This document shows, piece by piece, positions 24,400-29,237 of a stretch of DNA of 64,000 bases. A program made the translations under genes and the position numbers. The stretch is taken from contig JBHLLO010000002.1 of assembly GCA_048885535.1 (NCBI GenBank), forward strand, positions 16,952 through 80,951. The letters run 5' to 3'. The notes under the pieces were generated by a model, which saw nothing but the letters and a program-made list of their open reading frames with translations, was not told the origin of the DNA and ran no database searches. The DNA comes from Candidatus Hermodarchaeota archaeon. GTDB lineage: Archaea; Asgardarchaeota; Lokiarchaeia; Sigyniarchaeales; SOKP01. Each line of letters opens with the position of its first letter. Positions within the stretch are counted from its first letter, which is position 1.

Positions 24400-25434
24400 T
24401 TATAACGGAAATAACGCTGTTAAGATATTGTCTCTATAGTTTGCCTTTATAACTTTAGCCTTGATTTTTTTGTTTAAAATTTCATCAGAATAAAGGAAAG
24501 GTTTTTTTAATAAGACCTTTATACCAAAATTTCTACTAATTTTTCCAATACACTCATAATTCCAACGCCCTATTGATACTATCTCCAATTCTATTATATC
24601 ATGTTTTTTTAAATTAATGTTTGAAACAGGAAGGCGTTTATGAATCCCAAAATCTAAAGGTCCGAGTTTTAATTTGATATTGTATTTTTTTTCTAACTCA
24701 GTTAAATGTTTATAGAAATAAGTCCATGATTTTGGACGAATTTTTTTTAACTTTCTTCCTGTTTTATATATTAAGTATTTCTGAATGCCAATTTGGACCT
24801 TTTCTTTAGAGTATCCTTCATTCCTTAATTGAATGACAAATTTAATTATATCCTCAATATCTTTATCATTTTGGTTTGGAAACCATACAGGTGCAATTAA
24901 TACATTAATATTGGAGTCTAACAAGTAATAGATGTTCTGGATAAGAGCCTCAAGATTGTATTGCCTACAATCGCATAAATAATTTGCTTTGCTTTCATTT
25001 AGTGTATTTAAACTAATATTTATACGTGTAAGATTTAAGAGATTCAACTTTTTAATAATTTGTTTTGATAGTAGCAACCCATTACTTTGCATTGAGATAA
25101 TTTTTACTCCCTCAATTTCCCAAAGTTGGCTTAGTAACCTATACAATTCGGAGTATAAAAGGATTTCACCATAGGGAGCAATATGAATTTCTATATTAAA
25201 ATTTCCTTTAATAGTGACAGCTTTTCTTACTTCTTTAGCCAAATAATTGGAATTTACTATAAAATTAGTATTATAATCACCTGCATTTACAAAACAATAT
25301 TTACATTTCAAGTTACATAAAGTTAAAGGTTTTATTTCAATTACATTAGTACTACGATCTATTAAACCAATAAAATCAACCCCCATTAGGGGTATTTCTG
25401 ATTTTTCATCAATATATATTGTATTAGTAGTCAT
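24400..25434 (-). CDS. Radical SAM domain protein
   Basis: The cluster motif CNLKCKYCF fits CxxxCxxC near the N-terminus. A TIM-barrel-like body and a C-terminal beta-rich domain follow. Confidence 0.8.
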   Translation of the reverse strand: MTTNTIYIDEKSEIPLMGVDFIGLIDRSTNVIEIKPLTLCNLKCKYCFVNAGDYNTNFIVNSNYLAKEVRKAVTIKGNFNIEIHIAPYGEILLYSELYRLLSQLWEIEGVKIISMQSNGLLLSKQIIKKLNLLNLTRINISLNTLNESKANYLCDCRQYNLEALIQNIYYLLDSNINVLIAPVWFPNQNDKDIEDIIKFVIQLRNEGYSKEKVQIGIQKYLIYKTGRKLKKIRPKSWTYFYKHLTELEKKYNIKLKLGPLDFGIHKRLPVSNINLKKHDIIELEIVSIGRWNYECIGKISRNFGIKVLLKKPFLYSDEILNKKIKAKVIKANYRDNILTALFPL

Positions 25435-25465: not shown

Positions 25466-26539
25466 CTAAGGTTTATACCTCAAAATAGCTACTATATCAC
25501 CTAAAGCAATAATTTGTTGACCAGTAGGTTGTTCACTACTCAAAATGTAATATTTCCCATCAGATTTTTCTATATCAGTTAAAATCTCTTCAATTTCAAG
25601 TTTTTTCTCTTTTGAGATACCACGTATTAAAATATCTGTAATAAATAATTCTTCTATCACTCCACTTTTGGATAAATTAGAGATCTCTTTCACTCCAATA
25701 GCAATTAAGTCTGGATCAGTTGCTAAAATTGCAAAAATTTTCTCTATCTTATCTGTTTCTTGAAAAATTTTTACCTTTTCTTTTAAATTCTTTAATTGGG
25801 GAGATTTTAAGGTTTCAAATATTGCACTCTCAGTACCTGAGCTTGCATGAATAATATTAATTTTAGATAGATAATCCGGTTGTTTCTTGTCTTTAAGGTA
25901 TTTTAGAAATTTGTCTTTAATATTTCCAGGACCACACAAGATAATTAGATTTATATTTATGTTTTTGACGTTTTCATCCAATACTTTATTAATATCACCA
26001 AAAAATTCTTCATATGCTTTATTTCGATGGATTTGTTCATATCTTTTTCCGGGAATTGTTTTTTTAATAGTGGCTATTCTTGTATGACTAAAGTTAGTGA
26101 TAAGTGCAGCATTTGCTAATCCGCTTTCAATTGCAATTATAAGTAGTACAAAATTAACATCAAATTTTGAAAATTCCGTTAATCTTTTTATCTCACTCCT
26201 TAACCACATCTCCTTTATAATACTTAATTCGTTACCCACTTCGATATTAAATGTATGATAAGTTCCGAAACTCACAAAATCTTCAGGACCTTCACTAATT
26301 GTACCTTTAACTCTTAATCTATTTGAAAATTCATGGAATGAAACAGATTCTACCTTTAATTTTATCCACATTTTTTTTCGTTCTCCTTTTGTACCTTCCC
26401 TTAATACTACTCTTCTAGAAGTTCGCGTAGAAACATAATCATTCTTAGAAATAACATTATAAAGTGTCCATAAATCATTTAATGTTTCAATTTTAACAAT
26501 GACTTCTTGATTTTTATTATCTATTTCAAGAATCTTCAA
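25466..26539 (-). CDS. pelA: Pelota (Dom34) mRNA surveillance / ribosome rescue factor
   Basis: The N-terminus MKILEIDNKNQEVIVKIETLNDLWTLYNVISKNDYV and the 357 aa length are typical of archaeal Pelota. Confidence 0.85.
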   Translation of the reverse strand: MKILEIDNKNQEVIVKIETLNDLWTLYNVISKNDYVSTRTSRRVVLREGTKGERKKMWIKLKVESVSFHEFSNRLRVKGTISEGPEDFVSFGTYHTFNIEVGNELSIIKEMWLRSEIKRLTEFSKFDVNFVLLIIAIESGLANAALITNFSHTRIATIKKTIPGKRYEQIHRNKAYEEFFGDINKVLDENVKNININLIILCGPGNIKDKFLKYLKDKKQPDYLSKINIIHASSGTESAIFETLKSPQLKNLKEKVKIFQETDKIEKIFAILATDPDLIAIGVKEISNLSKSGVIEELFITDILIRGISKEKKLEIEEILTDIEKSDGKYYILSSEQPTGQQIIALGDIVAILRYKP

Positions 26540-26671
26540 ATATCAAATCAACTTTCTTAAACTGGTTATTCCTAATTTAGTTAAAGAATAGATATTAGAA
26601 AAGCTTACTTTTTTAGAAGGTATAAACAGTAAATAAATAAAAAAAGGAAAATGAAACAAAAATACAAAGAT

Positions 26672-26824
26672 TTATTCTTTTTCTCCTAAGGCTTCCCTAA
26701 TTTTTTCAAGTTCTTCCATTCTTTTCTTCTTTTCTTCTTCCCTTTTTCTCAGTTCTTCCACACTAACCTTTTGGAGAGTGACTCCCTTCTTAATCTCATC
26801 TTGTAACTCTTTATCAATTGGCAT
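26672..26824 (-). CDS. Unlisted 50 aa ORF with WH2-like N-terminal motif and K/E-rich helix
   Basis: Below the ORF-track size cutoff. My translation is MPIDKELQDEIKKGVTLQKVSVEELRKREEEKKKRMEELEKIREALGEKE, followed by TAA. AAGGAG lies 10 nt upstream of the ATG. Confidence 0.5.
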   Translation of the reverse strand: MPIDKELQDEIKKGVTLQKVSVEELRKREEEKKKRMEELEKIREALGEKE

Positions 26825-26834
26825 TATACCACAA

Positions 26835-26840
26835 CTCCTT
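26835..26840 (-). promoter_or_regulatory. Shine-Dalgarno AAGGAG for the 50-codon ORF
   Basis: The sense strand reads GTAAAGGAGTTGTGGTATAATG. The plus strand shows ctcctt at 26835-26840. Confidence 0.5.
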
Positions 26841-26948: not shown

Positions 26949-27401
26949 TTAAAGAGTTATTTCCATTAAATAAGCACTTTCTCGATTACTATAATAATTT
27001 TCAATTTCTTGAACTATTTGGAAATTAAATTTTTGATAAAGTCTTATTGCAATCCAATTTTTTTTATTAACAGTTAATATAATTTTCTTTATTTCTTGAT
27101 ATGCTTTGATTAGTTCTAATGCTGCTTGAAATAAGTATGAACCATAACCCTTATTTTGATAGGTTTTTTTTATTAAAAAGTTTATTATATTAACTCTATC
27201 TCTTCCGTCTCGAATAGCAATTATATAACCAATGATATTAGAGCTGTTTTTGCTCAATAGCTTTAAAAATAAAGAATTTCGTAAAATCAATTTTGTCATA
27301 GTTTGTTTTGAAAATGAATCTTGTTTGAATATCTGGTACTCCATTTTCATAATTTCCTTTAAATCATCTAAAACGACTCTCTTTATCTCCAAATTATTCA
27401 A
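26949..27401 (-). CDS. GNAT-family N-acetyltransferase (RimI-like)
   Basis: The acetyl-CoA motif region is YQNKGYGSYLFQAALE. The ORF is 150 aa and overlaps the upstream gene by 8 nt. Confidence 0.8.
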   Translation of the reverse strand: MNNLEIKRVVLDDLKEIMKMEYQIFKQDSFSKQTMTKLILRNSLFLKLLSKNSSNIIGYIIAIRDGRDRVNIINFLIKKTYQNKGYGSYLFQAALELIKAYQEIKKIILTVNKKNWIAIRLYQKFNFQIVQEIENYYSNRESAYLMEITL

Positions 27402-28533
27402 TCTCTTCTTTAAATTCTTTTATTGGAGTCTTTTCAGTTATTTGCATGTACTTTTCATCTCTAAACGGGGTAATTTCTACAATAAATCCTTGTAATTTAT
27501 ACTGATCTAATAATTCTATGAATCTCTCTTCTAAAGCAAATGCTACTGGTATTTTCATCTTTTGTTTATCATAAAAGACATATTTCTGAGGTATTCTTAT
27601 TTTATTCAATAACAATTCATTAAGTTTAAATAAAGATTGCTCACTTCCTTCAATCTGAGCAAATAATAGTAATCCATCATTATTAATAGATTCAAATGGT
27701 TTTTTGATTGATTTTGCGCGACGTAAATATCGTTCTTTTAGTTGCCAATAATCTTTTGCGCTTATAGAACAAAAATGGATTTTCATAGAAACTTCAGGGT
27801 AAATTTTTTTTAGTAATTTAAGAGCCGTCTTTTTGCTGTTCTCTACAGCTGCAATTGAATTTTTTTTTAGTCTGAAACCTTTTTCTCTTAAATATTGACT
27901 ATTGGTAAATGAAAATTCAAATTCGTTTAAATTTATAAATTGGACCCCTATTTTATCTAGAAATAATATTAATTCTTGGAGTTGCTCCATGTATTCTTTA
28001 GTTGGAATTACTGGTACCTCAACTCCAACAGTCATTCCTTTTTTTAATGCTAATGAGATTACTTTCCATCTATCTTTAGGAGGATTAAATCTTATTTCAT
28101 TTAGCCCTGCTTCAGCTAATTGATTAGCTAGTTCTTCACTGAAGTTCAACCCATTTGTATATAAATGTATATGAAACCTCTTCCCTTTTTTTCTCTTAAC
28201 ATATTTTATAATATCTATTGTTTTTTGAAAATTGGTATCAGAGAGGGGTTCCCCACCCGTAATACTCATTCCTTTTGCTTTGGTTTTATTAATTTCGTGA
28301 ATTATTTCTTCGTGGGAATTAATTTTAATTTCGTTTGCGAAGCTAAAATCTTTTCCTTTTCTTTCAAAAGAAATTGGGCAGTACCAATAACAATGTTTGG
28401 GATTTTGGCATATTCCGTTTAGGAACAAGACAGTTTTCTCTCCGTTTAGGCATAACTGGCATCCTTTTGGAATCCCTCTACCTTTAATATAGTATGTTAG
28501 TGCTTTTGATTGTATTATTCTTACATTTTTCAT
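27394..28533 (-). CDS. Radical SAM-related protein (pyruvate formate-lyase activase-related archaeal family)
   Basis: A Cys cluster (GICQNPKHCYWYCP), MSITGGEPL and NEIRFNP were seen. It overlaps both neighbouring genes, by 4 nt and 8 nt. Confidence 0.6.
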   Translation of the reverse strand: MKNVRIIQSKALTYYIKGRGIPKGCQLCLNGEKTVLFLNGICQNPKHCYWYCPISFERKGKDFSFANEIKINSHEEIIHEINKTKAKGMSITGGEPLSDTNFQKTIDIIKYVKRKKGKRFHIHLYTNGLNFSEELANQLAEAGLNEIRFNPPKDRWKVISLALKKGMTVGVEVPVIPTKEYMEQLQELILFLDKIGVQFINLNEFEFSFTNSQYLREKGFRLKKNSIAAVENSKKTALKLLKKIYPEVSMKIHFCSISAKDYWQLKERYLRRAKSIKKPFESINNDGLLLFAQIEGSEQSLFKLNELLLNKIRIPQKYVFYDKQKMKIPVAFALEERFIELLDQYKLQGFIVEITPFRDEKYMQITEKTPIKEFKEEIE

Positions 28534-29237
28534 TTTTTATAGAGCTTTTTTCTTACTATAGATTTTTTATTTGAAAGTTTCTTCAATACTTCTTCTGTGC
28601 TTTCTTGAATATCAATTACTTTCTTTAAAAATACTCCTGTTCTTCCGTATTTTTCTCTTTTCAATAAAACTTTTACTCTTTCTTTTACGGTATTCAAACT
28701 TATTTTTAATTCTTTTGCTACTAAATGTTCATTTCCAATAATAGAGTACTCATCATGCCCTTTATAATTAGGTTTAATCATTACTAATCGTTTATCAACT
28801 CCAGGTACTCTGAGGTGAGCCTTTAATTGATTAAGACTTACTTTTCCTCCAAAGTCATAGAATTCTATCGAATTCATATCCAGTTTAGAAAGGGGAACTG
28901 TTATACTTTCCATTTCATTCAAATATATGTATAATTTTAGAGAATCATTTGGAGTTGCCATAATTATTTCTCGAAAATAATTATTAAATCCATTTTTATT
29001 AAGGATATATTCAATCTGATAGGATGAGGTTGATTGAAGAAAAATTATATCTAAATCGCTCTCTTCATGAACATCCCCACGCGCAATACTTCCGTAGATG
29101 TATGGATTAAATCCTGCTTTTACAAAAATATTTAATAGTTCTATTGCTCTCTTTCTTTTTAATTTAATAAGTTCCCATTGATTTTTGGAGTATGTATGCG
29201 ATTGATAATGCTCTCTTAATATTTTTTCCCTTTTCAT
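28530..29237 (-). CDS. Pol-beta-superfamily nucleotidyltransferase domain protein
   Basis: The minimal NTase motif GSIARGDVHEESDLDIIF fits GS...D.D. Confidence 0.65.
   Translation of the reverse strand: MKREKILREHYQSHTYSKNQWELIKLKRKRAIELLNIFVKAGFNPYIYGSIARGDVHEESDLDIIFLQSTSSYQIEYILNKNGFNNYFREIIMATPNDSLKLYIYLNEMESITVPLSKLDMNSIEFYDFGGKVSLNQLKAHLRVPGVDKRLVMIKPNYKGHDEYSIIGNEHLVAKELKISLNTVKERVKVLLKREKYGRTGVFLKKVIDIQESTEEVLKKLSNKKSIVRKKLYKK

Follow-up and report, generated by a model that had tools for sequence, protein, structure and literature searches.

Among described systems, the closest counterparts of the small archaeal protein considered here are the WH2 domains (PF02205), which are found in N-WASP, WAVE, WIP, MIM, Spire and actobindin and in which a three-turn amphipathic helix is followed by a glycine and an L-x-K-V motif. 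WH2 domains are generally seen as having arisen in eukaryotes, some bacterial effectors excepted. Tandem WH2 proteins of eukaryotes include Spire, Cobl and ciboulot, and leiomodin/tropomodulin combines LRR with a WH2-like element. A second point of comparison is provided by the beta-thymosin/ciboulot type (PF01290), a free, slightly acidic peptide of ~45-50 residues in which an extended segment of LKKT type stands between an N-terminal and a C-terminal helix.

Much less has been described in archaea. The Asgard cytoskeletal proteins named in a 2026 review are actin, profilin and gelsolin only (PMC12993045). The linker of Asgard two-domain gelsolins carries an LKKT-type motif (LRRV, LVDV or LKDV; PMC7444086, PMC9433394, bioRxiv 10.1101/2025.11.30.690169), a four-residue element inside the gelsolin protein that lacks an amphipathic helix. 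In crystal structures this motif contacts actin near Asp25, and Loki and MK-D1 actins have kept the LKKT-type site around Asp25 (PMC9433394). In the full-text literature that can be searched, which has subscription journals outside it, these linkers are the only WH2-like motifs in archaea, so that an earlier description in a subscription journal is possible; a stand-alone archaeal WH2 peptide was likewise not found there, as an earlier note on this DNA had assumed. Leishmania profilin has a WH2-like insertion, which binds in the cleft of actin and on which function depends (PMC10907219). Arcadin-2 of Pyrobaculum depolymerises crenactin (PMC12050087).

Here we report on a small gene from an Asgard archaeon, found in a stretch of 64,000 nucleotides (the window) with a G+C content of 29%. 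The earlier note had proposed a 50-codon WH2-motif gene between pelota and a GNAT gene, preceded by AAGGAG 10 nt before its ATG, and the ORF list contains exactly this sequence at exactly this place: the coding sequence, which starts with ATG and includes the stop codon, occupies positions 26672-26824 on the minus strand and encodes 50 amino acids (MPIDKELQDEIKKGVTLQKVSVEELRKREEEKKKRMEELEKIREALGEKE). It is without annotation in the source record and is housed in the 409-nt gap between the start of pelota (26539) and the end of the GNAT gene (26949). The Shine-Dalgarno-like AAGGAG, which is the complement of 26835-26840 and thus also on the minus strand, is separated by 10 nt (26825-26834) from the ATG (26824-26822). 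Directly 3′ of the stop codon lie oligo-T tracts (26625-26671, minus strand) resembling an archaeal terminator, a role that they may have. The downstream neighbour, on the same strand, is pelota (25466-26539; NCBIfam TIGR00111, 227.7 bits), and the upstream neighbour, again on the minus strand, is a RimI-like GNAT N-acetyltransferase gene (26949-27401; NCBIfam rimI, 74.6 bits, below its cutoff). A TTG-start ORF of 38 aa (MFHFPFFIYLLFIPSKK...; 26543-26659, minus strand) is located between the small gene and pelota; it overlaps the T-rich, terminator-like tracts and seems to be spurious.

The 50-aa ORF is a genuine gene under strong purifying selection. A search of 5.8 billion proteins yielded 202 homologues of the small protein, all called 'hypothetical' and derived from Asgard MAGs, and those listed are 49-51 aa long and 69-94% identical to it. 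A profile scan of 185,579 species genomes found the small gene in at least 62 syntenic loci, that of the window's own genome not being one of them; these loci belong to Promethearchaeota throughout, bar one contig labelled Nanopelagicaceae. Orthologues in Asgard relatives, on which the earlier note had made its proposal depend, thus exist in number. Across 36 distinct orthologous coding sequences dN/dS is ~0.10, with a median dN of 0.11 and, among unsaturated pairs, a median dS of 1.03 (284 of the 630 pairs are saturated), and the sites that vary at codon positions 1, 2 and 3 number 22, 16 and 41 of 42, respectively. Upstream of most of the 36 orthologues, a purine box (AAAGGTG or AAAGGAG) stands at a fixed distance from the ATG, and in all but a few orthologues T-runs follow the stop codon at an equivalent position, which together fit a separate transcription unit for the small gene. 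At the same loci, the median identity of the small protein is 77%, as compared with 62% for pelota, 65% and 59% for the radical-SAM genes and 51% for GNAT; the small protein exceeds pelota in identity at 65 of the 67 loci. Such a degree of conservation is expected for the ligand of a very conserved partner.

Two database labels within this set deserve comment. The 'multidrug resistance efflux pump' and 'H-NS' that JGI assigns to some members are low-complexity artefacts. The contig labelled 'Candidatus Nanopelagicaceae bacterium' (L061; DATKTW010000134.1) has the complete Asgard gene order, with a pelota 62% and a small protein 71% identical to those of the window, and it is almost certainly misbinned.

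The gene order in the close loci, of which there are at least 62, is CutA1, a ~270-aa gene, a 235-aa gene, radical SAM, GNAT, the small gene, pelota and radical SAM. Pelota identity is at least 58% across these loci, so that the genomes, however variously labelled, belong to a single lineage. Around the distant family members P0138 (Sigynarchaeota) and P0135, pelota does not adjoin the small gene, which indicates that the order of the genes was inherited and does not reflect a functional operon. A functional link between the small gene and pelota was rejected on the ground of this lineage-specific synteny, and so was a translation- or ribosome-associated protein defined by family-wide linkage, pelota being absent around both members; the small protein of the window has no match to ribosomal families in NCBIfam or Pfam. 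No actin, profilin or gelsolin gene adjoins the small gene in the contexts examined, which include those of four other family members, and there is no actin gene in the 64-kb window or in loci L001-L008. As to the neighbours themselves, a RimI-like GNAT 34% identical to that of the window adjoins P0135 (L077, 6239-6712) in an otherwise unrelated context. The two radical-SAM genes (window 24400-25434 and 27394-28533, minus strand), syntenic with the small gene in at least 62 genomes, have only weak MoaA- or NrdG-like matches. The 235-aa gene (window 28530-29237, minus strand), also syntenic in at least 62 genomes, has no NCBIfam match, and its orthologue in L007 matches NTP_transf_2 weakly.

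The AF2 model of the 50-aa protein, built with the family alignment, consists of a helix at residues 5-13, an extended segment at 14-21 and a second helix at 22-49. Its mean pLDDT is 89, with 85-88 over the first helix and the loop and ~95 over the second helix. A Foldseek search of the PDB with this model gave no matches, the model being too small to inform. Residues 5-20, the WH2-like segment (26765-26812, minus strand), thus form an amphipathic helix from K5 to K13, then G14, then an extended stretch from V15 to V20 bearing L-x-K-V. In this half I11, K12, K13, G14, L17 and K19 are invariant in 34 aligned members, V15 and V20 are kept in at least 90% of the family, and L7 varies to M or I. 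The long charged C-terminal helix (residues 22-49; 26678-26761, minus strand) has further invariant residues in the same 34 members (R28, E31, K32, R35, M36, E38, L39, E40, K41, A45 and G47) and contains the best-conserved motif of the family, R-E-E-E-K-K-K-R-M-E-E-L-E-K. UIM and MIM1 motifs were considered for this helix and ruled out by eye, because key positions are absent.

How far does the N-terminal half resemble WH2? As references we used 10 canonical WH2 sequences, which score 34-68 bits in Pfam and are therefore valid for this purpose. Profile alignments place residues 7-20 (LQDEIKKGVTLQKV) in the register that the earlier note had read by eye, with L7, I11, G14, L17, K19 and V20 on the L, I, G, L, K and V columns of WH2, and these are largely the invariant positions listed above. 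The general layout of a WH2 domain is present in the small protein: two to three turns of amphipathic helix lead through a short linker to an LKKV/T-type motif, and the spacing is fixed. When the N-terminal halves of 28 diverse members (alignment A4) were compared by hhalign with the ten Pfam-validated WH2 sequences (A5), the probability was 85% and the score 23.3, with P=6e-6, a result that is compatible with homology and convergence alike and that, though strong for a comparison aimed at one family, would equal E ~0.15 over ~25,000 Pfam families and is thus marginal after correction. None of 400 column shuffles reached this score (6.9±1.7, maximum 15.3; z ~10).

The composition of the protein was considered separately, since the earlier note had itself regarded a chance match in a K/E-rich proteome as a real possibility. 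When the N-terminal 25 residues were shuffled 20,000 times, the real score on a WH2 HMM was reached only twice; 20,000 shuffles of the full length reached it 37 times. An HMM made of eukaryotic WH2 sequences only was run unfiltered over the window and 73 Asgard loci, which in six frames give 6,731 ORF segments (457 kaa). Orthologues of the small gene occupy roughly the first 68 places, with 6.5-12.8 bits. The copy in the window has 10.7 bits, as compared with 10.0 and 5.9 bits over the whole segment, and 6.5 and 5.7 bits over a single domain, for the best unrelated segments. The resemblance to WH2 is thus far above what composition would give.

Searches in the opposite direction, from the family to known structures, gave a similar picture. 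A profile of the close family alignment (A1) run against 177,635 distinct PDB sequences had an N-WASP 3xWH2 construct as its best match (E=0.0025). When the more diverse family alignment (A3) was used, the same construct remained at rank 1 (E=1.5e-4), N-WASP 2vcp_D came at rank 2 (0.062) and Spire DDD at rank 4 (E=0.12), and N-WASP 6uhc_H had E=7.2. This growth of the signal with a broader profile is unlike the usual behaviour of chance matches. The resemblance nevertheless stays below the definition of the domain: Pfam WH2, the profile by which the earlier note had proposed to judge the peptide, has zero matches at E<=10 to the window protein or to any of the 34 members, its gathering threshold being 23.1 bits. 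Single-sequence searches of Pfam, NCBIfam and the PDB gave nothing significant (DUF7067, E=0.026; L29, E=1.4; N-WASP, E=5.4). In addition, the first basic residue of LKKV is replaced by Q, E, T or A in the family, and the orthologues reach no more than the 6.5-12.8 bits given above on the HMM of eukaryotic WH2 sequences.

The A1 profile was also run against 1.84 billion representatives, where it found 52 proteins at E<1e-3. One of them, P0159, was retrieved at E=1.1e-5 over profile positions 4-22 and consists of three repeats (LKRTESVDKSAP, LKKTMSVDKSSP and LTRTAS) that score 36 bits on the WH2 HMM; its only matches in the PDB are N-WASP and WIP WH2 peptides. P0159 is the only canonical LKKT-type WH2-repeat protein that the Asgard profile retrieved from the 1.84 billion sequences. 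It is encoded on a short metagenome contig (L078, 256-765), its repeats have VDKSAP tails, and no named relatives were found by search. GTAAGT and GTAGTA on this contig suggest eukaryotic introns, and the gene may be a eukaryotic one.

The remaining proteins retrieved make it possible to view the small gene in a wider frame. Judged by its sequence, it is a stand-alone copy of an Asgard module of ~45 residues, which is reused in at least five architectures and whose named sources are Promethearchaeota, Lokiarchaeota or Sigynarchaeota in every case. About 35 Asgard proteins of ~250 aa (P0142, P0173-P0205) begin with a profilin-like domain, which a linker connects to the module, and end in a domain of ~50 aa. 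The module of these proteins reads LMKGLIDFFKKGGKLEKPDExDIKRREKERKQRMEELEKVLxALE, in which the final V of the motif is changed to P (LEKP). The AF2 model of one of them, P0183, has a pLDDT of 82-91 across residues 1-120, and its best Foldseek match in the PDB is OdinProfilin/actin (5zza_P; E=8e-11, TM 0.91), followed by LokiProfilin 1 and 2, Thor, Heimdall and eukaryotic profilins, which identifies a profilin fold; Pfam Profilin matches the fused relatives at E=2.5e-4 and 1.5e-3, below threshold. P0155 (L075, 7001-8164) joins a profilin domain to four modules. P0129 (L074, 7001-8494) has eight to ten modules in tandem, some reading hLxEI...LKKID or LQKIS, and P0167 and P0172 have four apiece; the arrays of 4-10 copies have a period of ~48 residues and recall the tandem WH2 proteins of eukaryotes. 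In P0164, P0168 and P0170, LRR repeats precede the module and RING or (double-)zinc-ribbon elements follow it, an order that may be compared with leiomodin/tropomodulin, and in P0165 an RHH-like segment precedes the module. The motif of the C-terminal helix is retained in profilin-fused and tandem copies, whose scores on the WH2 HMM are less than 3 bits. Both a free small protein (P0143) and a protein with a profilin domain and four modules (P0211) are encoded in one MAG (locus-tag prefix ACTSUE). These profilin fusions and tandem arrays lay beyond the data of the earlier note and constitute independent evidence that points in the same direction as the WH2 reading.

Some features of these proteins may be recorded for their own sake. 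The ~50-aa C-terminal domain of the profilin-plus-module family is conserved (ITIKAxFxTDYIYDDFQLLRxKHKI...). The contig of P0142 (L009, 6001-6909) also bears the eukaryotic signature genes AAR2 and GPP34. P0206 and P0207 have a profilin-like N-terminal domain fused, without the module, to a TrmB-type HTH regulator region (Pfam PF01978) and could represent an actin-linked transcription factor.

Compared with WH2, the small protein thus has the same succession of a three-turn amphipathic helix, a glycine and L-x-K-V with identical spacing, as can be seen by setting its residues 7-20 beside WAVE1 (LLEAIRKGIQLRKV; Pfam-validated); actobindin likewise has ELQ..I..G..L. As with WH2, the module is found alone, in tandem arrays and joined to other actin-related domains. 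Unlike WH2, however, the small protein lies below the Pfam threshold, has Q, E or T at the first basic residue of LKKV and carries directly after the motif an invariant charged helix of 28 residues, which is its best-conserved part; the named sources of the module are all Asgard MAGs, and actin binding there is putative. Because the Pfam definition is not reached and an extra invariant helix is present, we place the family as a new, WH2-like one rather than as a member of WH2. Of the WH2-motif gene originally proposed, the conserved gene and a likeness above background have thus stood, while Pfam membership has not, and the C-terminal helix has no WH2 counterpart.

The free peptide of this size, with its two helices and the LKKT-type extended segment between them, also has the layout of beta-thymosin and ciboulot, including a slightly acidic character. 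Beta-thymosin, in contrast, has a ten-residue linker between the motif and the C-terminal helix; in the small protein this helix begins two residues past the motif and is about three times as long. Membership of the beta-thymosins was rejected: hhalign of A3 against a beta-thymosin alignment gave P=0.26, and there is no match to Pfam Thymosin, a profile that gives 82 bits to thymosin beta-4 and 158 bits to ciboulot, the positive references. 'Thymosin-beta-like', as the peptide had been called, accordingly holds for the layout only, profile similarity being absent. If the small protein binds as proposed below, it would also be analogous to Arcadin-2 as a short-helix ligand of actin in archaea. 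In work attributed to Izoré et al. in 2016, a short helix of Arcadin-2 reportedly binds a hydrophobic groove of the archaeal actin and sequesters monomers. Arcadin-2 is nevertheless without sequence relation to the present family, belongs to the Thermoproteota lineage and has no LKKV-type motif. With the Asgard gelsolin linker the small protein shares an LKKT-type motif, but unlike the four-residue linker element it is a full helix-plus-motif unit with its own gene and without a gelsolin domain. The Asgard profilin-plus-module proteins resemble Leishmania profilin in joining a profilin fold and a WH2-like element in one chain, for which the Leishmania protein offers a eukaryotic precedent (PMC10907219). 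The arrangement differs: in Leishmania the element is inserted within the profilin fold, whereas Asgard archaea have it as a distinct module on the C-terminal side, in one to four copies, and also as a free gene.

What, then, does the small protein bind? That nothing is bound because the ORF is a spurious one in an AT-rich intergenic spacer is scarcely credible: it is indeed unannotated, short and of low complexity (K/E-rich), but the pattern of conservation refutes this explanation, with a dN/dS of ~0.10 at saturated synonymous change, 202 homologues of the same length, a conserved Shine-Dalgarno-like box and T-tracts, an identity higher than that of pelota and an AF2 mean pLDDT of 89. A conserved Asgard adaptor module with a partner other than actin, e.g., the ribosome, another component of translation or a chaperone, has to be taken more seriously, its likeness to WH2 then being due to chance or convergence. 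The absence of a Pfam WH2 match would suit such an adaptor, as would the conservation of the charged C-terminal helix above that of the WH2-like part, the position of the gene between the RimI-like acetyltransferase and pelota in at least 62 Lokiarchaeial-type loci, and the occurrence of the module with LRR, RING/zinc-ribbon and RHH domains, none of which is actin-specific. However, adjacency to pelota is gone in P0138 (Sigynarchaeota) and P0135, and the adaptor would leave unexplained both the repeated fusion to a profilin fold and the WH2 ranks of 1, 2 and 4 in 177,635 PDB sequences with z ~10 against shuffles; we consider it unlikely, though a serious contender.

A cytoskeletal module that acts otherwise than by WH2-type monomer binding, as a filament-side binder, a bundler or ruler, or a binder or regulator of profilin, seems to us more doubtful again. 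Repeats of ~48 residues in arrays of 4-10 copies, together with the invariant long helix of the family, would be appropriate for a filament-side ruler or bundler, the profilin fusion is also compatible with an intramolecular regulator, and fused and tandem copies are poor on the WH2 HMM, but the WH2 contact positions are precisely invariant in the stand-alone family, and nothing in the data is specific to filament binding. The reading that we put forward, tentatively and with a confidence somewhat short of even, is that the small protein is a WH2-like G-actin-binding peptide. Its WH2-like front half and the profilin fusions suggest, in more general terms, that it is probably an undescribed actin regulator.

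An outline of how a WH2-like G-actin-binding peptide of this kind might work is as follows. The module would bind actin monomers in the way that WH2 domains do: G14 would terminate the N-terminal helix, and the extended V15-V20 would place L17 and K19 of L-x-K-V, the equivalent of LKKV, on the acidic patch near D24/D25 of actin. The actin side of this proposed interface is plausible in Asgard archaea, as Asp25 is contacted by the Asgard gelsolin linker (PMC9433394). The helix at residues 22-49 might continue along the monomer and hinder polymerisation as in beta-thymosin-type sequestration, or else it might serve as a rigid spacer or as a pairing element. The free 50-aa protein could then buffer or shuttle the monomer pool of lokiactin, the module behind profilin could add a second actin contact, and modules in tandem could align several actins with one another. 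That actin is bound, where it is bound and how polymerisation is affected are all things that we infer.

If the family is WH2-like in function, the known actin regulators of archaea would gain a third class, and it would become testable whether WH2-type monomer binding, perhaps even nucleation, predated eukaryogenesis. A further step, that a WH2-type monomer-binding module predates eukaryotes, is ancestral to eukaryotic WH2 and was used free, fused to profilin and in Spire/Cobl-like arrays, must at present be regarded as improbable, though the resemblances in sequence and architecture would accord with it. Were it true, the archaeal actin toolkit would have had monomer sequestration, and possibly WH2-based nucleation, beside profilin and gelsolin. 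Even with a partner other than actin, there would still be a previously unannotated protein that is better conserved than pelota and whose module occurs in at least five architectures.

A minor observation concerns the very beginning of the protein. The N-termini of the family read MP, MAP, MTP or MS, and such starts are typical of substrates of N-terminal acetylation.
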